Part shown: in pieces, positions 5,924-60,531 of the stretch
Position numbering within the stretch: position 1 is the first letter of the stretch
Layout of the letters: the number at the start of each line of letters is the position of its first letter
Assembly (NCBI GenBank): GCA_964016885.1
Contig: OZ024742.1
Coordinates: 314,836,001-314,900,000 of the forward strand
DNA from: Eledone cirrhosa
Taxonomy: Eukaryota
DNA: 64,000 bases
Direction: 5' to 3'
Program-made: the position numbers and the translations under genes
The notes under the pieces: generated by a model
What the model saw: the letters and a program-made list of their open reading frames with translations, nothing else
Told to the model about the DNA's origin: nothing
Databases searched by the model: none

Positions 5924-6156
5924 GGTTATTCGAAATAGAATATTAATCTAACGACTCGATTTATACCATAAATGTGTTTTTTGTCTTTGCAAGAAATCGT
6001 TCTTCTCGTTCCCCCATAACGACGTAATTTTTTTCCGTTTTTTTCCGTTCAATGCTAGGGAAGATCTTTGCGAACCAAAGTATCGTTTTCCTATTTTCCA
6101 TCGGTTGTAACATTTTTCGAAATATTTACTTCTGCGTCCACAGATTGATTTCTTTT

Positions 6157-6198
6157 AGTTTCAGAAGATCCCGTTAAGGGTGAAAGGAGCTATTCTTT
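6157..6198 (+). ncRNA. truncated CAGAAGA-core HHR-like motif
   Basis: AGTTT-CAGAAGA-TCCCGTTAAGGGT-GAAA; 3' strand lost. Confidence 0.55.
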
Positions 6199-17356: not shown

Positions 17357-17416
17357 TATTTTATTATACGTATTTCAAGGACACAAGATTTTAGTGTGCT
17401 TTCATCAGATAAAATA
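17357..17416 (-). ncRNA. type I hammerhead ribozyme, intact core
   Basis: TATTTTAT-CTGATGA-AAGCACAC..GTGTCCTT-GAAA-TACGTA-TA^ATAAAATA; 8-bp stem I, palindromic stem III. Confidence 0.88.
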
Positions 17417-21160: not shown

Positions 21161-21518
21161 TGTGTGTGCGTGTGTGTCATTATGTGTATGTGTGCGCGAG
21201 CCTGTCTTTGTGTGTTCTGTGTGTGTGTCTTTGTGTGTATGTGTGTTCGAGCGTGTTTAATATATAACACACCCGATCCGTTTCATACTGTGTTCTATTT
21301 TCTTTTTCTTTATTCCTAATTTAATGTTTAGAGAAAATGGGTACATAAACACTTTTAGTTTGAACTCGAAAGTAATACATTGGACTGATTGTCAATAATA
21401 TTTCTGAATGTTTACGTCACTCATGTACATAATATTCTCATTATTGCAATAGCAGCGGTAGAAACATCTGCGCAGTGAAGTAAGTGACTGTATTAATTTC
21501 CAACCCAGATACTCTTAC

Positions 21519-22723: not shown

Positions 22724-23340
22724 TACATACATGGTGGCTGCCAACTCGTTTTCGAGTACGGCCACTACTTTATATCCATGTAGGAGAACCTCTACCGATG
22801 CGCTGAACGAGTGTGACTTTTTAGTCCAGCCAGCGACTTGAAAACTCTGGTACAAACACTACACTTGTGACAATTATTGACACACAGTGCTGGGCCCATG
22901 GCACCATGTGACGACAAGTGCAGAGAGATCTCCAGATATAAAGCAATGCCTGTGCCGTGAAGCTTGTATAGTGAGCAAAGGCACTGCACAAAGCCAGTCC
23001 CACTCTCTTAACCAAGATGATATTTACCAAAAAGAAGAACATGTCATCATCATTGGATACCATCAGGGCTGCAGGTGTTATATCAGAGTTTTCCTTCTCC
23101 TAGAATTCTGCCTTGACAAAGGCTAAGGGGTCATCTCTCCCGGTGATTTTGGATGGCCATTGACTCTTAAGAGCTCCTTTGCCCTTTGACAGGTTTTGTT
23201 TTTAGTCCTGCAGGATGTCCAAAGTCACCCTCCTCACCAAGAAACCTTGGTGGGGTTGCCAGTTTAGTCGCCAACGGCCCGACCATGGGACAGGTTGTAC
23301 TGGGATACATGTTACCAGTAGCACCAACTGGTGACCTGAC
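22724..23340 (-). mobile_element. bipartite non-autonomous RTE derivative, copy A
   Basis: RTE 5' UTR fused to last C2H2 finger, 3' UTR and (ATGT)n; near-identical to 28025-28644; abuts (ATAC)n at 23341-23460. Confidence 0.9.
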
Positions 23341-25226
23341 ATACATACATACATACATACATACATGCATACATACATACATACGTACATACATACATAC
23401 ATACATACATACATACATACATACATACATACATACATACATACATACATACATACATACACATATGTATGTGTGTATAGCTGTGCGTGTGACTGAGTAT
23501 ATGCATACATAGATTTATTCTTATATATCGACATATAATTATTACATACATACACCAAAACTGCTGTTTTTTCTACATTTACAGATAAACCTCTAAGGAT
23601 ATACTGTTAACGGATGTCGCCAGAACCAAAACAAAACCGCTTTATGTCAAAGTATATGACACTTGAATGAATGAGTGTCTCTGTGAAGATACATGCGTAT
23701 CTTGTAAATAGATTCGTATAAATAGTCCTTAGTGTACGAAGATTAAATATTTCTTTGAATGTAAAATAGATTTTTTTAAAATAATTTGTCTTAGTTTTGT
23801 TTTTGCGAAATAAAATTAATGAATTTACAGCGATGTGATTTGAAGTAAGACCTTTAGTATTTTAATGTAAAGTATAATTCTATGCGTGTGTGTGTTTATG
23901 AGCGTTTGTATTTGTGTATTATCTATCCGTATGGTGTGAAAGCTGATATATACGAATGGAATTATCCTGTAGTATTAATGCCTGTCTATAAAATTTTTAT
24001 ATTATCTCCAGCCTAGGCATTTCAAGCTATGAATATGACTGGGGTCCATATAATTGACTATATCGGTTGTTAAAGTGAGATTAGATATTATTTTATCCTA
24101 AATATAATTTTATCCTAAACTGAATATAATGTTCTATACCTAAGTGAGGAAAATGATAGTTGCTGTCTTTACACCATGGAATCCAATCATATCCCTTTTT
24201 CTAAAATATCATTTAGAAAATATTCACAACTATATTCACAGAAAATATGAGATTTATCAATCTTTCGAACCGACCGATTGAAGATAGTACAAGAAATGTA
24301 AAAGGATATAATGCAATGGAGAAGAAACATCGACAGAACGATGTACAAAATATATAGTAGCATTAGGTTTACTGCCGGCTACGCTCAAATATCGCTGTTC
24401 GCAATGTGACCTTTCACTCTTCCAACGTTTATAAACTACCAGTATACAATTACATGCTACGATCTGTCTGTATCACATAAAGAGCGCCTCTTCTTGTGTG
24501 TGCGTGTGTATTTCTATGGGTACGCAAATGTACGTATATAAGTTTGATCGAGGACACAAGTGTACGTGTGCAAATGCACATACTACGAGATTAGTCTCTG
24601 CCACTCCCTGCGCTGGTAAACTCACGTGTGCGCACACAATCTCACACATAGAGAACAATACATAAATTATAGCCCTACAGTCACTATCAGGATCTGACGT
24701 ACATCAAGAAATGTATAGCCTTGAATCTTTGTACCAATGAAATACGTACATACACACACACATTTATTCTTAGCTCTCTAATACTTAACTTCCGTCTACT
24801 AACTTTCCTATACATGATCTTCGTTCTAAAATTCTTGTTTTCCAGCATAGCTGACTTACTACACACATACTTTCCAACTGTCTAAGGTTTTCTCGTTTTT
24901 ATTTCTCCTTGTCCACCGCAAATATGCTTTATTCTCTCTCATTCTATATTCCGAAGAAGTTAGTTTTAACATATTTAATACAGAGGACATTAAAAACCTT
25001 TATTATGTGATCAGACATATACAATATTAATCAATATCTTATATAATATCAATTATTTCGGCAAGCGAAGAAACACCTCTGGGCTTATTTCACTCTATAT
25101 GCTTCGCAGTTGAAGTCATAAGTATGCATACAAGTATGTTAATTTCGTATAACTAATGATATACGGTGTGTTTAATAGATAAAGATTTAGAAACCCTAGT
25201 TATAAATATTGAAAGGCTGACAGCAA

Positions 25227-26280: not shown

Positions 26281-28026
26281 GATATCCCTCGCCGTTTCTC
26301 CCTTTTACGAACTACACATCTTGCTCTTGTTCTCACCAGACGATGGTCGGTCCAACACTCTGCCCCACGCATCCCACGAACACTGCACAGATCCTGTACA
26401 TCCCGCCACCTCACAAGGACAATATCAATCAGGTGCAACTGTTTCGATCCAAGATGCATCCATGTTGTCTTGTATTTGTCCTTCTGTGGGAACATAGTGC
26501 CGCCAATGAACAAGGCCAGCTCAGTGCACATTTGCAATAACGAGTCCATTGCCATTGCACTTTCCGACCCCATGCTTGCCCAGAGCTCTCCAGGTCTCAC
26601 AATCACGGCCCACGCGAGCATTAAAATCTCCAAGAATGAAAATGCTGTCTGCTGCAGGCACTTTCCAGGCAAGAGACTTTAATTCGTCATAAAAAGCCTG
26701 CTTTCCTTCATCAATGCATTCCAAAGTTGGTGCATAAGCACCAATCACGGTTGCATATCTTCCACCCTCTAGAGGAACTCTCACAGTGATCAGTCTGTCA
26801 CTAACGCCTGTCGGCAGCTCCTGAAGATGGTCTGTTATAACTGTTTTTATGGCAAAAGCGACACCAGCTTCCCTCCTCCCCTCCTTCCTTCCCCTCCAGA
26901 AAAACGTATATCCACAGGATTTCTCTGTGAAATGGCCCTCACCATGAAGTCCAGTTTCTGAGAGGGCCAGAACATCCATATCATAACGCCTGAGCTCCTT
27001 GGCAACCAATACCGATCTCCTTTCAGGTCGCTGTACATTTGTTTCAATATCAAGCAAAGTACGCACATTCCAGCACCCAAAATTGAATGGTTTGCACACA
27101 GTAGACTGATGACGACCAGGCCCAGACTGCGGCGCCCTGGGACAACTGCCGGGCCAGACCCTTTCACATGATGCTGATCCAGAGCCCTTATTGTCATTTA
27201 CTTCAATTGTGTTAGGTACCTTCATTGTAATGTAGTTTGCCTTTTTAGGCTTCGGCCAGCCAGAGTTCAACATCAATGTGACAAGTGCAGAGAGATCTCC
27301 AGATACAAAGCAATACCTGCGCCGTGAAGCCTTTATAGTGAGCAAAGGCACTGCACAAAGCCAGTCCCACTCTCTTAACCAAGATGATATTTACCAAAAA
27401 GAAGAACAAGTCAACATCATTGGATACCATCAGAGTTGCAGGTGTTATATCAGAGTTTTCCTTCTCCTAGAATTCTGCCTTGACAAAGGCTAAGGGGTCA
27501 TCTTGTGAGCACTGGGAAGCATGCGCTAGCGACCGATCGCTTTGGAGGAAAGCAGTGGCTAGTGGCAAGAGTCTATTTGAGGAAACAAGAAGAAAGCACG
27601 CGACACTAAAACGAGATGTCCGGAAAGGAATCCATGTTGGCCTTTGCGAAGGCACTGACAGACGGCCTGACCTTACATGTGAGACTTGTAATAGGGCATG
27701 TCTAAAGAGTCACCTGAGAGCGCACAAGAACAGGGAAGCAGGCACCTGTGGAGCTATAAGTGTTCATCAGACGACGTCATGTAATGTTTCTGGAAGGGTA
27801 TGCAGGTCGAGTAGTGATCTCACACGACACCTTGGTTCACATGGTACCATGGCCCAGCACTAGGTGTCAATCATTTTCACAAGTGTCGTGTTTGTACCAG
27901 AGTTTTCAAGTCGCTGGCTGGACTAAAAAGCGACACTCGTTCAGCGTATCGGTAGGGGTTCTCCTACATGGATATAAAGTAGTGGCCGTACTCAAAAACG
28001 AGTTGGCAGGCATCATGTATGTATGT
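26281..28026. mobile_element. RTE family A, 5'-inverted insertion: minus 5'UTR+APE endonuclease (26281-27503), plus C-terminus and 3' UTR (27500-28026)
   Basis: WNVRTL, SET, YAPT, GDFNAR, TDHRLV motifs; DRSLWR and C2H2 remnants; (ATGT)n at both outer ends. Confidence 0.88.
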
Positions 28027-28644
28027 CAGGTCACCACTTGGTGCTACTGGTAACATGTATCCCAGTACAACCTGTCTCATGGTCGGGTCGTTGGCGACTA
28101 AACTGTCAACCCCACCAAGGTTTCTTGGTGAGGATGGTGACTTTGGACATCCTGCAGGACTAAAAACAAAACCTGTCAAAGGGCAAAGGAGCTCTTAAGA
28201 GTCAATGGCCATCCAAAATCACTGGGAGAGATGACCCCTTAGCCTTTGTCAAGGCAGAATTCTAGGAGAAGGAAAACTCTGATATAACACCTGCAACCCT
28301 GATGGTATCCAATGATGTTGCCTTGTTCTTCTTTTTGGTAAATATCATCTTGGTTAAGAGAGTGGGACTGGCTTTGTGCAGTGCCTTTGCTTACTATAAA
28401 AGCTTCACGGCACAGGCATTGCTTTATATCTGGAGATCTCTCCGCACTTGTCGTCACATGGTACCAAAGGCAAAGCACTATGTGTCAATAATTGTCACAA
28501 GTGTAGTGTTTGTACCAGAGTTTTCAAGTCGCTGGCTGGACTAAAAAGTCACACTCGTTCAGCGCATCGGTAGGGGTTCTCCTACATGGATATAAAGTAG
28601 TGGCCGTACTCGAAAACGAGTTGGGAGCCACCATGTATGTATGT
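28025..28644 (+). mobile_element. bipartite non-autonomous RTE derivative, copy B
   Basis: Same junction (TCACAT, 28454-28459) as copy A. Confidence 0.9.
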
Positions 28645-31170
28645 GAAGAGGACATTGGAAGGAGAGATGCAGGCTGCAGATCTTGGTGAGGATTGGCCGA
28701 CCCTTAAAAAGTCGGTTTATGATGTAGGCAGGCGTGTTCTGGGATTGGCGCAGAGGAAACATCAGGACTGGTTTGATGAGAATGATATACATATAGAGGA
28801 CTTGTTGGCTGAAAAGAGACGTGCTCTGTCACGCTACTTGACGGCAAAACCACATGAGAGGAATACGTTGCATGAGGAACTCAGGGATGTAAAATCCCGT
28901 GTTAGGCGGAGTCTTTCTCGGATGAAGCATCAGTGGTGGAGTGAGAAGGCTGGTGAGATACAAACTGCGTCTCATTCCAATAACACAAAATTGTTGTACA
29001 GTCTCTTGCGTGAGGTTTATGTACCGTCTTCTTCTCTGGTGACACCGCTTCGCAGTAAGGATGGCAAAGAACTTCTTCGTGACTCACAAGGAATTCTACG
29101 AAGGTGGCGAGAGCACTTTGATGATCTTTTGAATCAGCCGTCTGTCGTCAGTGAAGATTTCCTCAATCTCATTCCAGAAAGTCCTGTGAAAGTAGCTCTC
29201 GCAGAACCTCCGACGCTTGTGGAGGTTGCAGTGGGTATTTCGAAGCTGAACAGTGGAAGATCTCCAGGTATGGATGGCATACATGCTGAGCTCCTACAAT
29301 ATGGTGGTGAGAGACTCCTGCAACATCTTCACTCTTTGTTTGGCAGGATATGGGCTAATGAATCCGTAGCTGAGGACTGGAGAGATGCAGTAATGGTGGT
29401 CTTGTACAAGGGAAAGGGTAACAGGAAGGATTGTGGGAACTACAGAGGTATATCTCTGCTTTCTGTCGTAGGGTGCTTCTGGACCGTCTGCTGACACACA
29501 TTGCAGATTGTGTTCTTCCTGAAAGTCAATCTGGTGTTCGTGCTGGACGCGGCACTACTGATATGAGCTTCTCAGCTAGACAGCTCCAGGAGAAGTGCAT
29601 GGAACAAGGCTTGTATCTGTATCAGGTTTTTGTCGATCTGACAAAAGCTTTCGATACTGTTAACAGAGATGCATTATGGAAGGTTCTCCAGAAACTTGGT
29701 TGCCCTGATAAGTTCCTTGCTTTAGTTAAGTCTTTCCATGACGACATGAAGGCTTAGGTTAACGTCGGGGGTAACATGTCGGAGCCTATCTCAGTAAAAA
29801 ATGGAGTGAAACAGGGGGATATTCCAGCACCGACCCTGTTTGCCATATACTTTGCAATGGTTTTCTGTATTGCATTCAGGAATTGCGAGCATGGTGTTTA
29901 CATCCGATATCGAACCTCAGGCAGCATATTTAACATCAGGCACTTTGCTGCGAAGACAAAAGTATTTACATCAATCATAAGAGACCTCTTGTATGCAGAT
30001 GATTGCGATCTTGTAGCGCACACAGAGAGTGATATGCAGCACATTTTGAATGCATTTTCTGACGCTTGCACTGCCCTAGGTCTGACTGTCAGTCTCAAAA
30101 AAACCGTCGTCATGTACCAACCTGCCCCTGGTAAGCAGTACACTGAACCAAACATCTATGTGTATGGCAAACGACTTGGAGTGGTTGATCAGTTTGTCTA
30201 CCTGGGAAGCACTGTCAATCGATACAGCAACCTTGACAGTGAAATCTCACTTAGGATTAGGAAAGCAAGTGATGCTTTCGGAAAGCTAGAAAGGCGACTC
30301 TGGGGTCGGCGAGACATATGCAGGAGGATAAAGGTAAAGGTGTACAGGGCTTGTGTGCTCTCTTGTCTTCTTCATGCCTGCGAGACCTGGGTCACATATC
30401 GACACCACCTTAAGCAATTGGAGCGTTCCATCAGATGTGTCTCAGACGGATCCATGGCGTTCACTGGAAGGACCACATCAGTGATGTCGAGATTTTGGAA
30501 AGCTCTATGTGTGACAGTATAGAAGCTCTTGTGCTTAAGCAACGACCCGTTGGAGTGGTCACCTTGCCAGGATGAAGGATGCTAGAATACCAAAACAACT
30601 TTTTTATGGAGAGTTGGTTAAAGGAAAACGACCGCCACATAAACCAAAAAAGAGGTATATGGATTCCTTGAAAGACTCTCTGAAAGACGCTAACATCTCT
30701 GCTGATACATGGGAGAATATTGCTGCTGATCGTAATAAATGGAGAAAGACTGTATATGAGGGAAAGTTGCCTTTGAGGCATCTCGATTCGCATACGAGAA
30801 AGTAAAGCGGGATGTGAGGAGGGGCATTGCTGTTGCACTTCCAGACGGCGAGGGTCCTCCTATGGTGCTGACATGCAGCGTATGTGCGAGACTCTGCCTA
30901 AGTAAAGCTGGACTCGAAAGTCATCTTCGCAGTCATAAAGTAAGACCAATGGTTGACTACCAGGCTGCTGTTGGAGATGCTACTCATCATGCTTGCCAAA
31001 CATGTGGTAGAGAATGTAAATCAGCAGGAGGGCTCAAGCGACATGCAAAAGTACACGAACTCCAACCACAGCCGACTATTCCCAGTGAATGTTTTGGTTG
31101 CCGACTCTGTGCAAGACATTTTAGATCATTGGCTGGGCTAAAAAGCCACATTCGATCGCAGCGCTGTTAG
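28645..31170 (+). pseudogene. RTE family B ORF, 5'-truncated: reverse transcriptase plus three C-terminal C2H2 fingers
   Basis: QDWFDEND, SPGMDGI, NYRGISLLS, FVDLTKAFD, GVKQG, YADD; several frameshifts and a stop; 3' UTR end at 31513-31580. Confidence 0.95.
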
Positions 31171-31583: not shown

Positions 31584-32025
31584 TGTACGTATGTACGTAT
31601 GTGTGTGTGTGCGTATGTGTGAGTCCCGGGTTCAATCGGGGGTAACCACGGTAGGTAAGGTACTCTATACATTAATAGAGTATAAATATCAAATTTAATA
31701 TAGAAATCAGCAGGAAGTCTGTCATTACCACAACAGAGATCTGACGAGCTTTTGATTCCAGAATCGGGCTAGATCAATTGTTTACTTTATTACTTTATTA
31801 TTATTATTATTGAATGCCATGGTTGACGGAGGCTAGGCTCTCTAAGGTATAGTAATTTTTAACCGTTAAAACAATTGTAAATTGTTTAAAACTTGAACCA
31901 AATTGTTGATAAAGACACCCTCCTCCTCGTGAGAGGGGTCTTTCTGTCCATTATTTGGCCCTTCGGGGTTAAATAACCAGTTATTGGGGTTTTGTACCCA
32001 ATATTCATTTTAAACAAAAAACAAC

Positions 32026-34117
32026 ATGGCTACGAAAAAGAAATTTCATACGTCACTCCCACTCATTCCGTCTTCTTCTTCCTCAATCATCACTACAGCA
32101 GAGAGAAGATTGTCTCTCTCCCTCCCTTCCTTAAATGTGTCTCTCTCCCTCCCTTTTCTTTCGCAAGCGACGAAAGAAAAGAAAAGTCTCGTGCAAAGCG
32201 TGCAAGGTTTCTCCACGACGACGACGACAGCGACGAAAAAGGTGTGCGGGAAATACGAAAACCCAGTTCATTCGTCTGACGTCAGGAATAATAGCAGTAG
32301 CAGCCGTAATAACAACAGCAACAGTGACAATGAAAACAACAGTAGCAGCCGCAACAGCATCACCAGCAGCATAAACAACAACAGCATTAGCAGCAGCAAC
32401 AACAACCACAGCAACAGCGGCGAAGGCAGTAGTCGTAGTACCTGCAGCAACAACAAAAGTAACAGCAGCTCTGATGACAACAACAACAACAGCAGCATAG
32501 AAAAACCAATCTCATTTGCAGGTATTGCGAAAAACTTGGAAACAATCCTCATAACAAATGAGGAATTAGAGGAAGCGAAGAAGATGGTGACAAAGAACGG
32601 ACACCGAGCAATCTGCAAGGCAGCGGAAAATTTTTTCGAAACCCAAGAGCACTGTACGGTCACGTACCGTACAGTAAGTACAAAATCCCGTAGGGTTGAA
32701 AGAGCCACAGAGGCTCAAATACAAAAAGCCTTGGGGTCTGTGTGGCAGCGGAAAACGCACATCACCCGAGGCAAAAAATATGCCACCGTAGACGTACATT
32801 TTACCACACCCCAGGAGGCAAAGGCCCAATCAGTAGTGACCCTAAGGAGCGAGGAAATGGTGTTGGTGCCCTCCTACTGCGGGCAAAAAATTGTGAGGGT
32901 CAAACTGACCACGTCCCCCCCGGAATGGCCCCTTCTTGGCTGGCAGCGTCTGTCCTCGTCGGAATCGAGGACAAAACAACTGTACTGCAAGTACAGAAAA
33001 AAGTAAGAGAAGATTGGGTCGGCACTTCCATTGAGATGCTAATCCAAACCAACCAGGAGTGCATCGAAGCTATCCCGGATGTGATAGACTTCGATAACGG
33101 CACTCAACTGCCCATAAGTGTTGAGGGCAAACGCCCGAAATGCTTTCGCTGTGGATCGAAGACTCACCTCAGAGCCTTCTGCAACGAGAAGACCCTGAGA
33201 AAGGAGAAAACCCCCCTCCTTCCGAATCCGGCTCCACGGCTACCAGCAACAGGACAAGCGGCAACCAGGAACGATAGGTCCATGGCACCCATACCCACGC
33301 CACGGAAATCAAAAACAGCAGCAGCAGTGGAAATATTAACAACAACAACAGCAATACCAAATGCAGCTGTAACAGAGACTCCAGTGCAAACATCACCAAC
33401 AACAAGTGAAACAGTGGAGCTGGTACCCCTCCCCGACCTCACAGAATCAGACATGGAGTGTGAGGTGGGAGAAAGATGGCAAAAGGTCGTAAGAAGGCAC
33501 AAACGCAGAAGCAGCGCATCGTCGCCTTTGAAAAGGGAGGAAAGAAATGAGAAAAAGGTAAAGTCTACTGCAAAGAGACCCACAGCAGCAACACCACCAA
33601 CACCATCACCACCCACACTAGCACCACCATCACCACCGGCGACAACCCCACCGCCAACAACACCTTCAACACCACCACCACAAGCACCAACATCGCAAAC
33701 ACAACAACAAAACACACACACCCAGCAACAACGACAAGAAAATAGCAGAACCACACCCCACCCCCTAAAAACAAATGCACGGCAATAAATACACACAACA
33801 AGAAACTAATGACTTACATAATTGAACACACAGACATTTCACAACAGGACTACATAATACCAGCACCAATCAAAACGCCAACTAACATAAGACTGCTAAA
33901 AATAGCACAGAAACAATACACAAACATTAAAACGAAATTCCCCAACGCAGTTGGTGATTTCAGGGACCTAGGAGGAACCATCAATCGAAGAGAATATTCA
34001 GACATTCTCCTAGAAGAGCCGACGACCAGCCGAAGGGACGATTCAAAGGTCCCTTCACCAGACGATCAAGTGAAAAGGGATGTAAAAACCATCCCTCCTC
34101 TACCAAAAGTACGGTAA
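32026..34117 (+). pseudogene. ORF1, gag-like (CFRCGSKTHLRAFC), two frameshifts
   Basis: Track pieces 32026, 32742 and 33809 are colinear with copy 2 ORF1. Confidence 0.85.
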
Positions 34118-34152
34118 GTGGTCTTTCCCATCTTTTCCACTCTATTTTAAAC

Positions 34153-36285
34153 ATGACCTCACTCAGAATAGGCAGCATAAATGCGCGTGGCTTGGGGTCG
34201 TCATGGAAGCAGGGTCACCTGCTCAACGACCTCAGGTCACTAAACATAGATGTAGTGGCCATCAGCAAGACCAGAATCTCCGAAGCATGGGCCTTCACAC
34301 CGACCTTCGGCGGCTACGATGTGTACGCATCTCCCAGCCGTCCTGGATCGGGTGGAGGAGTTGCTGTGCTTTTTCGGAGAGGTTTGGATCTCGCCATACG
34401 GGCCATCTTCCTGGACCCAGAGGGTAAGCTGGTGGTGCTGGACGTGACCAGCGGAGACGGGCAAGCTTTCAGGCTAGTGGCCGTCTATACCCCAACAGGA
34501 GCAGGGCGGCCTGATTTCTTCCGGCGTCTGGAGACCTTTCTTGGAACGTCCCGCTCTTTAGTGTTAGTGGGCGACTGGAACGGGATCTTAGATGCACGCT
34601 GGGACTGTGTGGGATTAGCGGATAGGGGTGGAGGGTGCAAGAGCCTCACCAACCTGCTCAGGCGTTTTGAACTGTCTGACAGGTACCGAATGGATTTCCC
34701 GAATGTGCCAATGTGGACTTGGACAAACCGCATAGGGTCATCCAGATCATATCTAGATAGAGTATTTTGTAGGGAAATAGATAGGTCTAGCATAGGCTGT
34801 CCACAATTCAAGATAGTCAGCTACACGGACCACAAATTCGTGATCTGTGTGCTTGACTTAGATAGGCTTCATAGACGAGGACCCGGCTACTGGAAGCTAA
34901 ACGCGTCCTTATCAGCATATGCGGACGATGTCACCGTAGTGGTGTCGAACGCCAAACACATCGAGGCGATCGGCACTACACTAAGAGAATACGAAGCGGT
35001 GACAGGAGCAATGATCAACCAGGAAAAGTCAGTGGGCCTGCAGCTCGGCACCTGGAGAGGCAGGTCCATGCCGTCCAACAGCGTCGTCGGACGCTGGACG
35101 GACGGACCGGTTAAATTGCTAGGGGTCTGGTTCGGTCCGGACCTCCTGACGGACAAAAACTGGGACGAGGTGACGAGCAGGGTGGCTTCTCTCACCCAGA
35201 AATGGGCCGAGAGGAAGCTATCCCTGAAAGGTCGAGCGGAGGTGGCTAACGCGTACATCGCGTCCGTCATCTGCTACCGCCTGACCGTCGTACCTTGTCC
35301 TAAGCCTCGCCTGACTGTGCTGGAGCGTTTGCTCTTTCGCTTTTTGTGGAAGGGACGCGCTCCGATGGTCAGGCGGTCCATCTGTTGTCAACACCCGCTA
35401 CGTGGAGGGCTGGGCATGCCGTGGCTGATGATGCGCAGGCACGCGCTCAGGCTACGACATCTCCACCTCTTCCTCGACGGTGATCAGGTGTGGTCGCCGT
35501 TAGCTAGACGCGTGTTTCCCCAGCTCGTTTCCTTGACGGAGCTGCAGTCCTGGGTCAAGCGAAGACCGAGAGGGAGCGCCTGGAGACTGGAATGTCTTCA
35601 GGCGCTCACAGCCCTCGACCAATCGGGCAATGTGATCGGTGGAAACTCCACCTCGGCGTTCTATAGAGGATTAGTGGAGGGGAAGAGCGACGACGCACTT
35701 GGGGAAACTCTAGGCGTCGACGAAAATCAACTAGCCAATCTCTTCGGAAGAACTTTCGGGCCAGGGCCTATGGACAACTTCCAGAAATCTCTGGCCTGGC
35801 AGTGCTACCGAGGAGCCTTGCCAGTTCGGGATAAACTCTACAGGCATGGAGGTGCCGTCAGCCGGGCATGTCCGAGATGCGCGCAGGGCGACGAAACCGT
35901 CCTGCACGCACTCGTCCAGTGTCCGAAAATTGCTGACTTGTGGGTTTATGTCGAACACCTGCTGTCGCGTTTAGGACGGATCCGGCTATCATCTGAGTCC
36001 ATCGTGAGGATTGCCCCGCCCTCCTCCTTTAGCCGGGAAGGGCAGGCAGTTTTTATCTGCCTGGTGGCCATGGCGAAAGAGATAGTATGGTGGACACGTT
36101 TGAAAGGGCTGAAGACGAGCACTTACCTCTTCGGTGATGCTCTGATTGACTTTTTCAAATTTCATTTGAAAAGGAAAATCAGAGTAGAGAGGCAAGTGCT
36201 CTCTTCCCAGCATTTTGTTGAAAGATGGGTGAGAGAAGCAAGAATGGCCCGAGTGAATGGGCCTACTCTGAGCATATATCTGTAA
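34153..36285 (+). CDS. ORF2 with in-frame deletion of most of RT (710 aa)
   Basis: APE domain, then WKLNASL|SAYADD junction at 34911/34912, C-terminal CPRC..H..C. Confidence 0.9.
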   Translation: MTSLRIGSINARGLGSSWKQGHLLNDLRSLNIDVVAISKTRISEAWAFTPTFGGYDVYASPSRPGSGGGVAVLFRRGLDLAIRAIFLDPEGKLVVLDVTSGDGQAFRLVAVYTPTGAGRPDFFRRLETFLGTSRSLVLVGDWNGILDARWDCVGLADRGGGCKSLTNLLRRFELSDRYRMDFPNVPMWTWTNRIGSSRSYLDRVFCREIDRSSIGCPQFKIVSYTDHKFVICVLDLDRLHRRGPGYWKLNASLSAYADDVTVVVSNAKHIEAIGTTLREYEAVTGAMINQEKSVGLQLGTWRGRSMPSNSVVGRWTDGPVKLLGVWFGPDLLTDKNWDEVTSRVASLTQKWAERKLSLKGRAEVANAYIASVICYRLTVVPCPKPRLTVLERLLFRFLWKGRAPMVRRSICCQHPLRGGLGMPWLMMRRHALRLRHLHLFLDGDQVWSPLARRVFPQLVSLTELQSWVKRRPRGSAWRLECLQALTALDQSGNVIGGNSTSAFYRGLVEGKSDDALGETLGVDENQLANLFGRTFGPGPMDNFQKSLAWQCYRGALPVRDKLYRHGGAVSRACPRCAQGDETVLHALVQCPKIADLWVYVEHLLSRLGRIRLSSESIVRIAPPSSFSREGQAVFICLVAMAKEIVWWTRLKGLKTSTYLFGDALIDFFKFHLKRKIRVERQVLSSQHFVERWVREARMARVNGPTLSIYL

Positions 36286-36532
36286 ATTAAAGGTGGAAAA
36301 CTGGGAGAGGGCACTTTCCTTGGTGGTCAGGGTCATTGTGGCTTTTTACTGGGCTTTCTCCACAAATCTCCCTCCGAAGTCTCCCCCCTATTGGGGAATT
36401 TTTCATTGTTATTTTTGTTACATCCTCTGTTTTTGTTTTTTACACGCAGAAATGCCCATTTGTACCGTCCTGCATTGTCCTGCACTGTCCTTAATGTCTA
36501 CTTTATGTAAACCCTTGTGGTTAATAAAGAAA

Positions 36533-36570
<38 letters not shown>

Positions 36571-36573
<3 letters not shown>

Positions 36574-36748
36574 GGCAGTATCGGTAGAGGGTCGGACGCC
36601 ATGCTTTGACGCATAGAGTTACGGTCCTTGTCATTCTGAGTTCAAATCCCGCCGAGGTTAACTTTGCTTTTCATCCTTACGGGGTCGATAAAATAAAGTA
36701 CCAGTAATGAACTGGGTATTTGCTGGTCTTGTGCCAAAGGTAGAAACA

Positions 36749-36787
<39 letters not shown>
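36571..36787 (+). mobile_element. tRNA-derived SINE between the two LINEs, long (ATT)n tail
   Basis: Family match; first ~8 nt missing, joined at ATT. Confidence 0.92.
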
Positions 36788-36997
36788 GGCGACCTACGTA
36801 GGAAATCGTATTATCGTGAGCTCCGCAAAGGTTTGTTATTTCCGTTTGTTTAAACATTGCCATTTATGGAAAATTTTATTGTTAACTGTTTATAAGCACA
36901 CATACATTGTTTTCCGAAAAGGACACCTAAAAAGATTGGGGCCTTGTGCCCAAAATTTTAACTTTTATTATTATCAAAAAGTTTCTTTGAAAGAAAA

Positions 36998-38973
36998 ATG
37001 GCTACTTCACCTCTGCACGAAGCAGCTGAAAGCCTTCCTCACAAAATAACACCTCACACCGACACCACCATTGTAAATGTTACTACGTTTGCCAACACAA
37101 AAAAAAATATAAGCAGTAGCAATATTTTAAATTTGTCTCAGGCAGACATTCATTTCCCGCCATTACCAATGACTGCAGGTGTTAAAGCCTCCACCACCAC
37201 CACCACCACCGCGACAACAGAAACAAAAGAAGAAAAAAATAAATTAACTCGTGATGTCGAAATGAAATCAAGCAAAATGGACTCTTCCCCACCAAAGACG
37301 ACTGACGTCACCACCACCACAACTGAAAATAAAATTAATATTAACGATAGCAACAACAACAACAATGACATTATAAACCCCCCCCCTCAGTTTCGCCAGA
37401 GTAGCAAAACAATTCGAAGCATTTACCGTAACTCAAGAAGATTTAGAAAATGCCAAACAAATGGTAAAGAAAGATGGGTACAGGGTCAGCCTCACCCCCC
37501 CCCCCCACACACACACCTAATAAAATGGAGCATCGGCGCCTATGCACCGTGTCGTATAGAACAATAAATGTAAAATCGCGCCGAGTGGAACGGGCATCCG
37601 AGTCCCAAATCCCAAAAGCTTTGGGACATGTGTGGGCAAGAAAAACCCACATCAGACGTGGGCAAAAGTATGGAACCGTGGATGTGTTCTTTGAAACACC
37701 AGAGGAGGCTAGAGAACACTCCATGGCCCCATTAAAAAGTGACGACCTCACACTCGTCCCAAGCTATTGTGGCCAGAGACTCGTAAAGATCAGGGTGACC
37801 CACGTTCCACCGGCCATCGAAATTCCCTGGCTAATAGCGGCTGTCCTCGCCGGCATCGAAGCCAACACGAAAATAATAGCAGTAGCAAAAGAATAGCAGG
37901 AAAACTGGTCCGGATCTGGGATGGAGCTCTTAATCCAAGCGGACCAAAAAAGCATTGAGGAGATCCCAGAGGTAATAGACCTCACTGACGGCAGCCACCT
38001 CACGGTAATTGTCGAGGGCAGAAGACCTAGGTGTGTCGTTTGTGGTGAAGGAACCCACCTAAGGGCTTTCTGCCCTCAGGCTAAAAGGTTGAGGCCACCT
38101 CTCCTACCCACCCCAGTGACACAACCATCAACACCACCAGTAGCAGAGATGGCAGCAACAACTGTAGCAGCAACAACAGAAGCAACTATAACAGCAACAA
38201 CCCCAGCAACAGTAGCAAAACCAACAACACTACCACCACCAGCAAACCCAACACCACCACAACCCAACGCTTCAGAACTAGCACCAGCGCCTACACCATC
38301 CACCACACCACAACCAAAACTAACGGCTGTGGAGGATTTTCCACTCCCCGGCCTATCACAACTGGAGACATATTGTGACGACAAGGAGTGGGAAACGATA
38401 TCCGGAAAAAAAAAAGAAACCAAAAAAGAAAAAAATTCTCTTCCTTCCCCCTCCAAAAACAAAATACAGAGGGAAACAAATAAACTAAGAAACAAAAAAG
38501 TTAGGACAGATATGCCACGATCCACACCAGCATCACCAACCCCATCAACCCAAACACCAACACCATCACCATCATTAACTCCAACACCACAATCACCTAC
38601 ACCACAAAAGTCACCAAAATGCGAAACAGAAACAAACCCACAACAAACGCAAACAAAACAAAACAACCAAAACGATACACACTACACAGCATTAAATTTG
38701 AACAACAAGCAATTATTACACTACATCCAACACAACACCAGCATCACAGAAAAAGACTACACAACAACCCCAAAATTCACACCACCTCCACACATACAAA
38801 TCACTCGCATCACACAGAAAACGTACATGACACTAAAAAAAAAATTCCCCAAAGACATCGGAGACTTCCGACAAGCACTCTCCAGGAGGATTTATAAGGA
38901 CATCCTTCCTGAGGAGGCCACAAGCAGTGAAAAGGATGGAAAAGCCGTCCTTCCCCTACGAGAAGTAAGGTAA
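36998..38973 (+). pseudogene. ORF1 of copy 2 (CVVCGEGTHLRAFC), disrupted
   Basis: Frameshifts around C-runs at 37380-37510; TAG at 37894. Confidence 0.85.
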
Positions 38974-39007
38974 GTGGTCTTTCCCATCTTTTCCACTCCT
39001 TTTCAAC

Positions 39008-42000
39008 ATGACCTCACTCAGAATAGGCAGCATAAATGCGCGTGGCTTGGGGTCGTCATGGAAGCAGGGCCACCTGCTCAACGACCTCAGGTCACTAAAC
39101 ATAGATGTAGTGGCCATCAGCGAGACCAGAATCTCCGAAGCACAGGCTTTCGCACCGATCTTCGGCGGCTACGATGTGTACGCATCTCCCAGCCGTCCGG
39201 GATCGGGGGGAGGAGTTGCTGTGCTTTTTCGGAGAGGCTTGGATCTTGCCATACGGGCCATCTTCCTGGACCCAGAAGGTAAGTTGTTGGTGCTGGACGT
39301 GACCAGCGGAGACGGGCAAGCTTTCAGGTTAGTGGCCGTCTATGCCCCGACAGGAGCAGGGAGGCCTGATTTCTTCCGGCGTCTGGAGACCTTTCTTGGA
39401 ACGTCCCGCTCTTTAGTGTTAGTGGGCGACTGGAACGGGATCTTAGATGCACGCTGGGATTGTGTGGGATTAGTGGATAGGGAAGGAGGGTGCAAGAGTC
39501 TCACCAACCTGCTCAAACGTTTTGAACTGTCTGACAGGTACCGAATGGATTTCCCGAATGTACCAATGTGGACTTGGACAAATCGCATAGGGTCATCCAG
39601 ATCATATCTAGATAGAGTATTTTGTAGGGAAATAGATAGGTCTAGCATAGGCTGTCCACAATTCAAGATAGTCAGCTACACGGACCACAAATTCGTGATC
39701 TGTGTGCTTGACTTAGATAGGCTTCATAGACGAGGACCCGGCTACTGGAAGCTAAACGCGTCCTTACCAGCGCGCAAGGCCTACAGAGACCGGATTAGCG
39801 AACTAGTTAAGCGGGCGTTGAGGGGGCCATCGTCAACAACAAGTGGTGGTTTGCTCTGAAAAGAGCAATTAGAATAGAGTCCATTAGGTTTAGTAAGACT
39901 TTAGCAATAGAGAAAAATAGAGCAGAGGGAGAATTAGTTAGAAAATTAGATGAGGCGCTTAGCAAAGGCATCGCGACCGACGTACTTGCGGCGAAATTGG
40001 CCCTTGACCAATTCTTCAATGCAAAGCACGAAGGCTGCGTTGTCAGAGCTAGGGTGCGTGCTCTCAGACACGAGGGGACGAAAGCCGTTCAATGGGCCCG
40101 AGTGGCGGAGGCGCGTCGTGGCAACAAAGCCACGATCCGGTCTTTGGTGGACCACGACGGGCGCATGCTACTCGATCCCGGGCAAATGTGTGAAGCTTTT
40201 CAGCGACACTTCGCTCAATTGTTCGGGGGCAGTGGCGCGCCGGATCGAGGGATGGACTTTAGTGTCTACCTCGACGGACTGCCGCGGCTTTCGGCCACTG
40301 AGGCGGAGTGTTGCGAAAAGCCGATAACAACCGCTGAAGTACGGGATGCAATGACTAGTTGCACAAGGGGTAAATCGCCTGGTTTGGATGGTCTGCCCTA
40401 TGAACTTTACGTACAAATGCCAAACTTGTTCGGAGGCCTCTTGGCGGACGTCTACTGCAACTGGCAACAGAACGGGAGAATTCCCAGCTCTGTGAGCCGA
40501 GGAGCGGTGGCGCTGCTGAGAAAGGATCCGAACAAGGGGGATAACATAGATAATTTTAGGCCCATAACTCTGCTAAACACAGAGTTCAAGATTTTGGCCA
40601 AGGTGCTAGCAAAGAGGTTGGCGCTTGTCGTTGGTGGTCTGGTGGGAGAGGCACAGACATGCGCCATTCCCGACAGATCCATCCACGACAACCTCCACCT
40701 CATGCGATACATCGTAGAGAGGGTAGCTAGGGAACCTGGCACGGGTGGGTCTTTGATCAATTTAGATCAGTCGAAAGCCTTCGATAGGGTCGACCATCGT
40801 TACCTAACGGCAGTCCTGAGGGCGGCTGGGTTTGGGCCCGTCTTCAGAGGCTGGATCGCTGCCATGCACAGCGACATCTGCTCTGTAGTGAGAGTGAATG
40901 GTCACCTTTCGGAACCGCTCAACATCATGCGCTCGGTCCGCCAAGGATGTCCCCTCTCGTCCCTATTGTACGTATTGACTCTCGAGACATTACTGCACAA
41001 ACTGGAGACATTGAGGGGGGTCCCGTGCGAACTAGGATGCGGAAGATCCGTGTCAGCATATGCCGACGATGTCACCGTAGTGGTGTCGAACGCCAAACAC
41101 ATCGAGGCGATCGGCACTACACTAAGAGAATACGAAGCGGTGACAGGAGCAATGATCAACCAGGAAAAGTCAGTGGGCCTGCAGCTCGGCACCTGGAGAG
41201 GCAGGTCCATGCCGTCCAACAGCGTCGTCGGGCGCTGGACGGACGGACCGGTTAAATTGCTAGGGGTCTGGTTCGGTCCAGACCTCCAGACGGACAAAAA
41301 CTGGGACGAGGTGACGAGCAGGGTGGCTTCTCTCACCCAGAAATGGGCCGAGAGGAAGCTATCCCTGAAAGGTCGAGCGGAGGTGGCGAATGCGTACATC
41401 GCATCCGTCATCTACTACCGCCTGACCGTCATACCTTTTCCTAAGCCCCGCCTGACTGCGCTGGAGCGTTTGCTCTTTCGCTTCTTGTGGAAGGGACGCG
41501 CTCCGATGGTCAGGCGGTCCATCTGCTGTCAACCCCCGCTACGTGGAGGGCTGGGCATGGCGTGGCTGATGATGCGCAGACACGCGCTCAGGCTACGACA
41601 TCTCCACCTCTTCCTCGACGGTAATCAGGTGTGGTCGCCGTTTGCAAGACACGTTTTTCCCCAGCTCGTCTCCTTGACAGAGCTGCAGTCCTGGGTCAAG
41701 CGAAAACCGAGAGGGAGCGCTTGGAGACTGGAATGTCTTCAGGCGCTCACAGCCCTCGACCAATCGGGCAATGTGATCGGTGGAAACTCCACCTTGGCGT
41801 TCTATAGGGGATTAGTGGAGGGGAAGAGCGACGACGTACTTGGAGAAACTCTAGGCGTCGACGAAAATCAACTAGCCAATCTCTTCGGAAGGACTTTCGG
41901 GCCGGGGCCTATGGACAACTTCCAGAAATCCCTGGCCTGGCAGTGCTACCGAGGAGCTTTGCCAGTTCGGGATAAACTCTACAGGCATGGAGGTGCCGTC

Positions 42001-42426
42001 AGCCGGGCATGTCCGAGATGCGCGCAGGGCGACGAAACCGTCCTGCACGCACTCGTCCAGTGTCCGAGCATTGCTGACTTGTGGGTTTATGTCGAACACC
42101 TGCTGTCACGTGTAGGACGGATCCAGCTATCAGCTGAGTCCATCGTGAGGATTGCCCCGCCCCCTTCCTTTAGCCTGGAAGGGCAGGCAGTTTTTATCTG
42201 TCTAGTGGCCATGGCGAAAGAGATAGTATGGTGGACACGTTTGAAAGGGCTGAAGACGAGCACTTACCTCTTCGGTGATGCCCTGATTAACTTTTTCAAA
42301 TTTCATTTGAAAAGAAAAATCAGGGTAGAGAGGGAAGTGCTCTCTTCCCAGCATTTTGTTGAAAGATGGGTGAGAGAAGCAAGTATGGCCCGAATGAATG
42401 GGCCTTCTCTGAGTATGTGTCTGTAA
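39008..42426 (+). pseudogene. ORF2 (~1139 aa) with a single frameshift near 39822
   Basis: SET, GDWN, TDH; KSPGLDG, FRPITLLN, KAFD, RQGCPLS, YADD; second frame open from ~39825. Confidence 0.93.
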
Positions 42427-42677: not shown

Positions 42678-42724
<47 letters not shown>

Positions 42725-42735
42725 TAACAGATTAA

Positions 42736-42786
42736 AGTTTAAGCAAAAAATCGCTGATTTCACCCTTAACGGGATCTTCTGAAACT
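42736..42786 (-). ncRNA. CAGAAGA-core HHR-like motif
   Basis: Same as 60322-60372 with a stem III substitution. Confidence 0.6.
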
Positions 42787-53650: not shown

Positions 53651-54699
53651 GAGTGAAAGAAAGAGACAGACTACAAGAGGGGGATAGCGGGAGGGAGAGA
53701 GAGAGTGAAATACGCTGTCTTTTGATACTGTCAAAGATAAATGTCGTATAACTATTATCATGTGTGCGTGTGTGTGTGTGTGCGTGTGTGAGCGTTCCAA
53801 TAAGAGTAAAATCAATTAACATGTGAGTGTGTGTATGTGCACATATGCGTGTGTGAGTTTGCCATATGTATATGTGTCTGTATCTGTATACACGTGTATA
53901 TATATATACATATATATATATGTGTAGGAGGTGAGTTTTATTGTAGTACAATAAAGCAATGCAGATATCGGATAAGAAGCACTCTACAGTTTGTAGGACT
54001 GGAGTATACATAATATATATTATTATTATATATATTTATATACATGTGTATATGTCGTCTGCTTCCCTTATGAGTTAGCGATCTCTTTCTCTTTCTCTTA
54101 GTCTTTCTCTTTTTAGATAGATACATAGATATGACGTCGCGCCTTCATAATATCTGTCTGTATGCCTGACTGTCTGCATTACGTCATTATGACGCGATCA
54201 GTGTGTGTGTGTATATATATTATTATGCCAGGGAACGTCTTCACGAACCAAAGTATCGTCTTCCTGTTTTCCAGATTGATTTTTTTAGTTTAAGAAGATC
54301 CCGTTAAGGTTGAAAGCAGCGATTCTTTGCTTAAACATTAATATGTTATTTTAATATAGATATTCGTGTACAAGTATTGTTGCATACACAAAAACAAAAT
54401 ATAAACAAACAAGGCCAAAGATTACATCAATTAGTCTTAGTTTATGTACTTCATACTGCTTTTAGATAGAATATCTCGTTAAGGGTGAAAGCAGGGATTC
54501 ATTGCTTAAACTTTAGTCTGTTATTTTAATATATATATATATATATATAATTATATATTTATGAACAGATATTTTTGCATACACAATAACAAAATATAAA
54601 CAAACGTATTTATTTCACGAGGTTCGATAAGGATAAATATATATCAAATATATAAGAACCCTATAGCAAATCCCGAGCAACGCCGGGCCATTCTGCTAG
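53297..54699 (+). mobile_element. non-autonomous Helitron
   Basis: A|TCTATATATATAAAA start; CCCG AGCAACGC CGGG hairpin then CTAG|T; no TSD; flanks rejoin as CAATAAACA|TAGGTTATAAA, also seen intact at ~53248. Confidence 0.9.
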
Positions 54700-55639: not shown

Positions 55640-57880
55640 AGTATATACAAAAGAAATGAATACAAAGCAGTATATACCGTTAAAACATGTTTATATAACA
55701 ATGCACCTAGGTACGTTTCGCCCAGAACGGGCTTCTCAAGGGCATAGAAAACAAAAAAAATGATAGGTACGCGACCCAGGAGGGGTTTTAAGGTTAAATT
55801 CACATCAGAGTTCATTCTTTGTTTAAGGACATGTGTTGTTGTTGCCACAGAACAGGGGGAGTAACTCCGGCCGGTGCTTGAATAATTTTGTCCCACTGGT
55901 TTTTTACCCGTTCACATGATGGTGCTTTGCGTTATTATTTTGTGGGTGCTGCTTTACTAATGCCGGTTCGAGCCGGGTCCGGGATGCATATTTAGTTCAC
56001 AGATGTTTGTTTGCGCCGCCTGCCCAACGGAGTGTTATAGTTTGGGCAGGGGGACCCAGTTTATGGTTTTTATGTCACAGTCGGTTCCCACCCGAAATAA
56101 GACACTTGTATTCAGTGCCTACAGTTTATGACTGATTCGGCTCTGCTGTTTATGAGTTCGTGGGGTGTTCTTATGATGTAGTAAAGCTCCATGAAGCAAA
56201 GCTCGCACTTCCTCTTGAAATTGTATTGGCAGCCCTACCGACAATATCCCAGTGTGTGAAGAAGCTGATGTTGGCGTCTTTTAATGTAGTGACGTAATTG
56301 GCAAGTGACGTGGAGTGCCTTAGTCTTTTGTTTCCTGAAAGAGTGGAGATGTGTTCTAAATCGAGTTTTTAACTGGCCAGAGGTGGCCCTTATATAGTGT
56401 TTAACTCTATTATGGCTAGTTATAGTGCACCTATAAATAACATTATCAGTCAGGCAGTTTCCTCTGAGAAGGCAGCCTCCCCTGTCACGACAGTTGCATT
56501 TTCTGTTACGGTCGGTCCTACTTCCTGAAGTAAAGCTATTACTATTGCTACCTATGTTGTTATCTATGTCTCTATCTCGGTCATTGGTACTGTTATATCT
56601 CGAGACGTGCGGGGTAGTACCATTATCCCCCCGCTCGCCGCAGCCCGTTCAGTTGCCGGTGAGTGACCCGTGCAGGTCACCAGCATATTCCCTAGTCTCG
56701 CCTTGGTTATGTCGGTTTCGTCTGTTGGGGCTGCCACCAACACTATTGGGTGCTGTTAGAGCGACGTTAAGGCTATTAGTGTTGCTGTCGAGTCTAGATG
56801 TACCTGTGCTAAGGTGTCGTGTTTTGGTGATCTTACTGTGATTAGTTGCTCCTATGATGTCTGCTAGATTGGGGGTGGTAGAGAAGGATATTTTAACATT
56901 ATTCTTATTAAGAATTTTCCTGTATTTATGATTGGGTGGGAAGTTCTTCTCTAAGGCTTCGAAGAATATCTTCGGTATGTCGGAGGCCACACTCCGAGAG
57001 TAGGGGTGGTGGAACCATAGGACATTACGGTGGCGTTTCCGCTTTACCGTGGGTTTCCTACGGGTTGTGCTTCCTAGTTGACTGTACTTATGGTTGTTAC
57101 TGTGCTGTAGCCAGTTATGCGTCCCCTTCGCTTTATGTTCAGGTGGCCGCGCCTTCCTTCCGTTATTTTTATGCTAGACACCGGTTGGAGGGCGTTGGTA
57201 ATAGGCCACCGCCGTTGATAATCTTATAGTTAGGGAATAATTCTCGTAGGCTACAGCGGCTGGCGTTACCAATCTGGTGACCCTTACTGTGCTGTAGGTT
57301 ATCTTGGCCGCCACTCATGTAATTAACTATACGGCCAAGTTCCTTAGTGTGGTTCTCTATACTATGGTTCTTGACTCTGTCCTGGCTGCAGCGTACTCTG
57401 TTATAGGTATGGCTTACTATAACATTAGTCCTATGTTGAGGTTGGTTACTAGAGCTAGCGTTAAGGATATAGGATATTCTCCGGTTAAATCCGACATTCG
57501 GCCGCTTGGTTGAAGGTATCCTCGTTGGTGGAGAGCCTCGAGATCCTATGGGATATGCTATATACTATGGAGTTTAGAGTAGACTTAGGGTGGTTATATG
57601 CATAGTTTATATAAGACAGAATCTCGCTGGGTTTATGGCATGGCTTGTATAGGCCCGTACTCAACTCTATGGTTATGTCCAGGAAGTTGACTATCTAGTG
57701 GTTGAGGTCTATAGTCACGGATGGGCCATATATCTTGAAGAACCTGTGTATACGCTTTTTAAGGTTCTCTATCCTGGGGGGGGGGGGGCTATGGTTTCTA
57801 ACCGTAAATAGGGCATCGTCCCTCTATACACCTCCCTGTAGGGCCGGTATCTCGTCCCTGTAGGGCCGGTATCTCGTCCC
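55640..57880 (-). mobile_element. degraded Neptune-type Penelope-like element
   Basis: Frameshifted YR-DDA RT motif near 57815, KILNKNNVKISFS, CNC..C, VIY..YI, CELC. Confidence 0.85.
55701..55745 (-). ncRNA. HHR, U3-A8 variant, at 3' end of PLE 2
   Basis: ATGCCC-TTGAGAA-GCCC GTTCT GGGC-GAAA-CGTACC-TA^GGTGCAT; stem III one change from palindrome. Confidence 0.7.
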
Positions 57881-58577: not shown

Positions 58578-58765
58578 TTATTAAAATAACAGATTAAAGT
58601 TTAAGCAAAGAATCGCTGCTTTCACACTTAACGGGATCTTCTGAAACTAACAAAGTCAATCTGTGAACGCATTCTTTGCTTAAACTTTAATTTGTTGTTT
58701 TAATAAATATTTGCTCTACGGTTCTTATATATTTGATATATATTTATCCTTATCGAGCCCTCTTT
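58578..58765. mobile_element. foldback element with CAGAAGA HHR-like motif (58598-58648, minus)
   Basis: 58578-58613 is inverted at 58671-58706, followed by a tail. Confidence 0.75.
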
Positions 58766-60252: not shown

Positions 60253-60305
<53 letters not shown>

Positions 60306-60321
60306 TAAAATAACAGATTAA

Positions 60322-60372
60322 AGTTTAAGCAAAGAATCGCTGCTTTCACCCTTAACGGGATCTTCTGAAACT
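60322..60372 (-). ncRNA. CAGAAGA-core HHR-like motif, best copy
   Basis: AGTTT-CAGAAGA-T CCC GTTAA GGG T-GAAA-GCA GCGATTCTT TGC-TT^AAACT. Confidence 0.7.
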
Positions 60373-60531
60373 AACAAAGTCAATCTGTAAACGCAGAACT
60401 GGATATTTAAAAAAAAGGAGGGTAAGTGTGAGTATGTGAGTATGTGTATGTAAATTTAATTATTACTGTTTAAAATGCATAAATATATTGCATGTTAACA
60501 CTTAGTGGTGTCATCATCTATAATATCTTAC

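Follow-up and report, generated by a model that had tools for sequence, protein, structure and literature searches.

A hammerhead-like motif on the reverse strand of the Eledone cirrhosa contig OZ024742.1 (assembly GCA_964016885.1) reads CAGAAGA where the core of the canonical ribozyme reads CUGANGA. The locus raises the question of whether A at core position 4, in place of U4 of the conserved CUGA turn, reflects decay of single copies or the regular state of a family, and what such a state would mean for the mobile element that carries it. We have addressed this question from the 64,000-nt stretch of DNA that was analysed (positions 314,836,001 to 314,900,000 of the contig, hereafter the window) and from the copies of the motif in the rest of the genome. 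Our findings indicate that the A4 motif is a real, fixed U4A variant of a Hydra-type Penelope-like element (PLE) hammerhead.

The motif and its copies in the window

In the focal copy, three helices surround the core and the junction is open at stem I, with 5 bp plus 9 distal pairs in stem I, 3 bp plus a U-U in stem II and 4-5 bp in stem III (Table 1). The C3-G8 pair, G5, A6, A9, G12, A13 and A14 are all in place, each in at least 147 of 150 copies in column counts, as are A15.1-U16.1 and an H at position 17 within a CUU site (U17 in 28,626 of 29,190 copies). Two features depart from the type I hammerhead: the U4 of the CUGA turn is an A, and the purine-pyrimidine pair at 10.1-11.1 is a U-U. 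As U4 is absent, we file the motif as a hammerhead variant and refuse it canonical membership. The U-U was pointed out in a first-pass annotation of this DNA and is borne out by the sequence; it is no special feature, being the norm in Hydra-clade hammerheads (14 of the 25 families in the table of PMC8557442) and a known tolerated mismatch (PMC3088659). Fold prediction adds a distal helix of 9 bp, unmentioned in that annotation, that would prolong stem I past a U-rich bulge.

Table 1. Features of the A4 motif, its copies and its sister family (window positions unless a locus is given)
Feature	Position	Strand	Basis
Type I hammerhead-like three-way junction	60322..60372	(-)	Sequence, chance test
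Stem I (AGTTT/AAACT)	60372-60368/60326-60322	(-)	Sequence
Core CAGAAGA	60367-60361	(-)	Sequence
A at core position 4 (canonical U4)	60366	(-)	Genome-wide copy counts
Stem II (CCC/GGG plus U-U closing pair 10.1-11.1)	60360-60348	(-)	Sequence
G12-A13-A14 of GAAA	60347-60345	(-)	Sequence
Stem III (AGCA/TGCT)	60344-60328	(-)	Sequence
U17	60327	(-)	Sequence
Predicted cleavage site after CUU	60326..60327	(-)	Hammerhead numbering; no junction hotspot
Predicted distal stem I, 5' arm	60380..60388	(-)	Pair probabilities 0.72-1.0; 0/9 subfamily differences
7-nt U-rich bulge in stem I	60373..60379	(-)	Carries both subfamily differences of the extended motif
Predicted distal stem I, 3' arm	60313..60321	(-)	Fold prediction, subfamily columns
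Putative transcription start, at stem I base 1	60372	(-)	5'-end pile-up in DNA copies
5'-truncated pseudo-LTR fragment of a PLE, (TA)n tract at end	60296..60415	(-)	Alignment to full unit L066
Second copy (58671-58578), joined to a short partial copy in inverted orientation; mismatch in stem II	58578..58706	(-)	Sequence
Third copy; G, then start exactly at the putative transcription start; stem III mismatch	42710..42786	(-)	Sequence
Older-subfamily copy, breaks off within stem III	6052..6198	(+)	Sequence
Older-subfamily decayed copy; C3 changed, A4 kept	54225..54365	(+)	Sequence
Decayed copy with A4 but altered C3 and G8	54459..54562	(+)	Sequence
Sister PLE family	20189-21256; L118, L122, L126, L128, L130, L133	(-) in window	Protein identity, hammerhead

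The CAGAAGA core occurs in the window at 6162(+), 42781(-), 58643(-) and 60367(-), confirming the four copies initially listed. The full type I topology that had been ascribed to all four is found only at 60367: the 6162 copy is without the 3' half of stem III and the cut site, and single mismatches lie in stem III of the 42781 copy and in stem II of the 58643 copy. Two more degenerate copies had been said to keep A4; they do so, at 54293(+) and 54467(+), and both have lost C3. The focal fragment itself exists in at least 40 identical 116-nt copies.

That this arrangement resembles a hammerhead merely by chance is hardly credible and is refuted, to the extent that sequence permits, by position and composition. 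Its folding energy is no better than that of shuffled sequences (z = -0.03) and Rfam returned no hammerhead match for the A4 copy with E up to 10, both of which would suit a chance origin. Against it, when the 1,006-nt 3' region was shuffled 3,000 times with its dinucleotide content preserved, an equally good motif never arose, even with any base allowed at position 4, and the motif takes the same place in its element as the sister-family and published Hydra hammerheads. Moreover, Rfam was equally blind to a natural U4 copy and to the canonical hammerhead motifs of the window, none of which was matched; since the U4 copy was missed as well, the failure is not due to A4.

A4 as the family state

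Throughout the 3.0-Gb genome, the exact 24-nt motif is present with A4 in 19,868 copies and with C, G or T at position 4 in 214 (1.07%). Among the first 100 of the 214 listed, the alternative bases were 40 G, 31 C and 29 T, and this spread over three letters points to decay as the source of the non-A4 copies. A downstream 29-mer, with 29,190 copies, sets a lower bound for the size of the family. When only the flanks were used for the search, 984 copies were retrieved, mostly of the older of two subfamilies, and A4 was found in all 100 of those listed; column counts likewise gave A4 in 150 of 150 copies, part of this set having been fetched with A4-containing queries. Contigs of 8 runs with 8 other organism labels (related organisms) carry only A at this position; these runs are of low depth and were chosen for near identity, and position 4 is spanned with room on both sides in 5 of them and lies near contig ends in 3. 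In addition, A4 is common to the two subfamilies, which are about 11% apart. The initial proposal that A4 is family consensus and not decay is thus upheld by the genome-wide counts and by the flank-selected matches, and the consensus is CAGA, not CTGAAGA.

No second A4 family appeared in 1.25 Mb of sampled loci, and two CAGATGA matches in another family proved to be one locus found twice. Nor was a closer sister family with U4 seen in the sampled loci, where nothing of this kind lay in the range from about 58% up to decayed copies of the A4 family itself. As had been anticipated, standard motif searches would miss the A4 motif, as descriptors built on CUGANGA, like those employed by Craig et al. 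(2021; PMC8557442), exclude CAGA. We found no report of a natural U4A hammerhead in the literature searched, subscription journals lying outside that search, and the novelty of U4A is accordingly provisional. The sequence of the A4 family is absent from the supplement of PMC8557442, no CAGA core is among the 6 matches in the searchable part of the PMC4209133 supplement, and the available portions of PMC11014351, PMC7151607, PMC6155905 and 10.1101/2022.01.19.477025 contain nothing on U4A. The accessible part of a preprint (10.64898/2026.07.22.740005) employs descriptors of the canonical and minimal types, which have no bearing on the core.

The parent element

At locus L066 the motif is present twice in direct orientation, at a distance of 3,259 nt, and the copies flank a single ORF whose start is 156 nt past the predicted cut site of the first. 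The A4 motif lies inside a pseudo-LTR, and its suspected link to a PLE is substantiated by this parent. The single ORF combines a reverse transcriptase (RT) with a C-terminal GIY-YIG endonuclease, as seen from the YRDDG and YIG motifs, and its Atlas neighbours carry RVT_1, HTH_animal and GIY-YIG at scores of 0.95-0.98; Pfam and PDB sequence searches gave nothing useful. Pseudo-LTRs, inverted 5' copies (in L062, L063, L065, L067 and L069) and insertion in (TA)n, evident from (TA)n ends at other loci, agree with the layout of Hydra-clade PLEs. In line with this, the natural copies in L066 and L072 carry RWR, DKT, CxCX5C, CxxC..E and N..CxH, which correspond to the RWK-type motif, DKT, CxCX5C linker, CxxC before E and CxH after N given for the clade in section 11 of PMC8557442. 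Judged by these protein motifs and this layout, the parent is probably a Hydra-clade PLE. A Naiad parent was ruled out by the C-terminal endonuclease, and a Neptune or Nematis parent by the linker, which differs. The unit, at 3.26 kb, is slightly over the clade's usual length of under 3 kb. A canonical hammerhead near the 3' end, a trait described for the clade and not defining it, is missing: no CUGA or UUGA hammerhead lies elsewhere in the 2 units scanned, where the A4 motif stands alone.

Spliced genomic copies at L217, L235 and L052, compared with L066:4334/4366-5084, reveal a spliceosomal intron in the 3' region of the element, with two alternative donors and one acceptor, that is retained in most copies. 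In this regard, A4 might have been fixed as part of an AG splice acceptor, a U-rich tract followed by CAG, with splicing rebuilding or removing the core. The three spliced copies with their two donors, and the Penelope intron of Drosophila virilis that ends at helix I (PMC4209133, in the part available), lend this idea some appeal. We nevertheless consider it very improbable: all three spliced copies among the 301 surveyed use an acceptor 102 nt upstream of C3, and a genome-wide search for the two donors joined to either core-adjacent AG gave 5 matches, with no exact donor end and none at CAG. The check was genome-wide for these two donors and extended to other donors within the sampled loci; for the two donors, with no exact junction at the core, a splice-acceptor origin of A4 is largely refuted.

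Putative transcription start and insertion ends

The 5' ends of genomic copies accumulate at the motif. A non-T base directly precedes stem I in 2,606 of 19,868 copies (13.1%), when about 1-2% would be expected from decay and random truncation, and when the cut site is changed or interrupted in 564 of 29,190; 28 of 30 fetched copies were true junctions at stem I base 1, and the preceding base was G in 53 of the first 100 listed. Among 78 mapped copies, all selected for U17, the interval from -8 to +4 around C3 contains 27 of the 5' ends, compared with just 2 for the 13 positions ahead of it. An extra G at full-length 5' ends is a mark of a copied cap, and the site at stem I base 1 resembles an invertebrate initiator. 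Since 5' ends at stem I base 1, mostly after an extra G, suggest a capped transcript that begins with the ribozyme and is copied uncut, we infer that this base is the transcription start. As the 5' arm of distal stem I lies upstream of this start, it would be present solely in read-through RNA.

Downstream of the cut site, insertions stop after either about 25 or about 110 nt, and the copies that span this site imply that their templates were uncut RNA. The two insertion ends are reminiscent of the two priming sites described for the Anolis Poseidon element in the accessible part of PMC11167929.

Other hammerhead families and repeats in this genome

A sister Penelope-like family, with about 50% protein identity, carries a U3-A8 hammerhead at the same place in the element, with a stem II region of about 55 nt, a GUC site and a similar 9-nt stem III loop. 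Among 23 repeated hammerhead-like clusters in the 1.25 Mb, a sample biased towards the A4 family, which is the most frequent of the 23 there, 21 are mostly U4, one is a two-copy C4 cluster and the A4 family alone has A4. C4 hammerhead-like motifs were noted at L008:574, L070:6077, L080:939 and L094:1789; they comprise the two-copy cluster and a related single, plus 2 of the 5 copies of another cluster, and possibly represent a natural U4C family.

A canonical CUGA family is present in the window as an inverted pair at 2540(+) and 2457(-), with U10.1-U11.1 and a palindromic stem III; it has at least 6,308 exact copies genome-wide, which seem to begin about 45 nt upstream of the core, and no ORF of a parent element was found for it. 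Canonical hammerheads of other repeated families lie at window positions 17408(-), 17804(+), 18105(-) and 62164(-), and retrozyme-like tandem repeats of ~310 nt, each with a canonical hammerhead, at L030:100-410, L079:5895-6515 and L131:5833-6145. The window also holds another broken Penelope-like ORF (56235-57859, minus strand, 40-45% identity), broken non-LTR retrotransposon ORFs with endonuclease and RT (26521-30522 and 32014-42426, of which 36962-42426 looks like a near complete element with ORF1 and ORF2), and a 627-nt inverted repeat, 97% complementary, whose arms (22724-23350 and 28015-28641) are 4.7 kb apart.

Conservation, cleavage and the probable role of the A4 motif

The family divides into two subfamilies, one older (67 copies compared) and one younger (110), which have diverged by about 11%. 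Columns that differ between them number 51 of 446 upstream, none of 69 in core or paired positions and 2 of 7 in the bulge (p=0.0004, or 0.0008 without four group-defining sites), so that all core bases other than position 4 and all four helices have been kept through this divergence. In a downstream control, none of 100 columns differs either (19 old and 37 young copies). The constraint thus covers the whole leader and does not single out the motif, which weakens subfamily conservation as proof of catalysis. Among copies of the A4 family the stems show no covariation; in the remaining families of this genome, as in the published Hydra ones, the stems have other sequences yet pair, as judged by eye and position and not by alignment. 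In contigs of related organisms, the distal stem has A to G in one and C to T in two, and wobble pairs are kept.

Junctions at the cut site do not discriminate. Position 17 is non-T in 564 of 29,190 copies, and junctions among 30 of these numbered 8 by script and 12 by eye, 3 of the 12 being microhomology joins. A control position, changed in 620 copies, gave 5 junctions in 30, against 8 in 30 by script at the cut site (p=0.53); cut-site junctions are estimated at 150-225 of 29,190, not clearly above the control position. The CUGA family of this genome has 76 such copies with 14 junctions in 30, about 35 of at least 6,308. Junctions at the cut site are thus just as scarce with U4 as with A4, and their scarcity is uninformative on A4.

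Taken together, the place of the motif in the element, the family-wide A4, the intact remainder of the core and the 5' ends piled at stem I base 1 are, in our opinion, somewhat better explained by a slowed ribozyme, retained chiefly as a structured 5' portion of the RNA of the element, than by anything else. Transcription would begin at stem I base 1, and the capped RNA would open with the hammerhead. Reverse transcription would be primed between 25 and about 110 nt 3' of the cut site and would read across this site, so that the observed copies could arise from uncut RNA alone. By weakening the U-turn, A4 would protect both the cap and the region used for priming from cleavage. Any cutting that persists would more probably affect read-through RNA, in which the arm of distal stem I is present as well. 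Attenuation is favoured by the U3-A8 hammerhead of the sister family at the same place, by the low activity of single CUGA-turn mutants in mutational scanning (PMC9901934, in the data available), by the uncut template of Poseidon and by the leader-wide conservation. Against it, the retention of core and helices through about 11% divergence fits selection on catalysis equally well, and a natural U4C viroid variant is functional in vivo and still infectious, according to the available text of PMC3088659.

A possible, if rather unlikely, alternative is that the A4 core cleaves usefully, mainly in read-through or tandem transcripts, with help from the prolonged stem I, from a contact of loop II or from the protein that the element encodes. 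The intact rest of the core, the contrast between paired and bulge positions, the 9-bp distal stem and the wobble pairs kept in relatives would all be in keeping with an active variant. So would the descriptions, in the sections available, of protein-assisted cleavage of PLE hammerheads (PMC11167929) and of other rare core variants that keep activity and cleave slowly (section 8 of PMC3088659). The same weak turn mutants that favour attenuation speak against useful cleavage, as do the conservation that is not specific to the motif and the lack of a cut-site hotspot. In addition, predicted ensembles rarely form the proximal 5-bp stem I (pair probability 0.05-0.08, never above about 0.1), and the minimum-energy structure is 2.1 kcal/mol more stable than the hammerhead fold, in a model that takes no account of tertiary contacts.

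It seems improbable that A4 abolished cleavage altogether and that the letters persist through overlap with an internal promoter and the first-copied region. A relic of this kind would account for a motif that begins at the putative start and for the conservation of the whole leader, and the copy numbers of Naiad elements are high even though these lack canonical hammerheads (PMC8557442). Within the extended motif, though, the subfamily changes are confined to the unpaired bulge, and a promoter would presumably require neither 69 invariant positions nor distal pairing across the start.

We regard as quite doubtful a further reading, in which the choice of transcription start acts as a switch for a working purine-4 hammerhead. 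Transcripts begun at the start of the element itself would have the weak 5-bp stem I alone and stay uncut for translation and copying, and read-through RNA from upstream would gain the 9-bp distal stem and be cut. If true, over 20,000 copies would cut read-through transcripts genome-wide, unseen by CUGA-based searches.

In any case, the A4 family offers a natural experiment with a substituted U-turn and CUGA-core neighbours as controls. The role of the hammerhead in Penelope-like elements is called open in the available text of both PMC8557442 and PMC11167929. PLE hammerheads are generally weak in vitro (PMC4209133, likewise in part). If the slowed ribozyme that we favour is correct, an element with more than 20,000 copies can spread without efficient self-cutting. 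A slow A4 RNA would support cleavage as dispensable or costly; an A4 RNA that cleaves well would require a broader core consensus and a corresponding extension of every census based on CUGANGA.

Comparison with known systems

Canonical motifs are called universal in the Hydra clade in the available text of PMC8557442, and the hammerheads of the 25 families in its File S2 (Craig et al., 2021) are all CUGA, in contrast to the CAGA reported here. Otherwise the A4 motif has much in common with those listed: a type I fold near the element's 3' end, A at N7 in several, a UH site, U10.1-U11.1, a 3-4 bp stem II and a 4-bp stem III. The layout of Hydra-1_aJap is closely similar, and loop III differs, with 9 nt in the A4 motif against 1-3 nt in the Hydra-clade hammerheads. 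Compared with the 25 families, U4A is thus the sole odd letter of the core and, besides the longer loop III, the one real departure.

Among the variants described by Perreault et al. (2011; PMC3088659) are U3-A8, A6C, U15.1-A16.1, insertions, U10.1-U11.1 and the viroid U4C. As in the A4 motif, a single departure sits in an otherwise complete motif, and U4C concerns the same position; U4A is not named in the main text of that paper (supplementary figures S6 and S7 aside). Those variants are rare, whereas A4 is fixed in over 20,000 copies.

A further parallel is with Poseidon of Anolis (Frangieh et al., 2024; PMC11167929, available in part). There too, the hammerhead lies just upstream of internal reverse-transcription starts, the tail has two 3' ends, the template is uncut RNA and no read ends fall at the cut site; unprocessed RNA is the main template, and hammerhead mutants leave insertion in vitro unaffected. 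The Poseidon hammerhead has a canonical core whose cleavage with protein help has been shown, and it overlaps the start of the ORF, in contrast to the A4 family with its ORF start 156 nt past the cut site.
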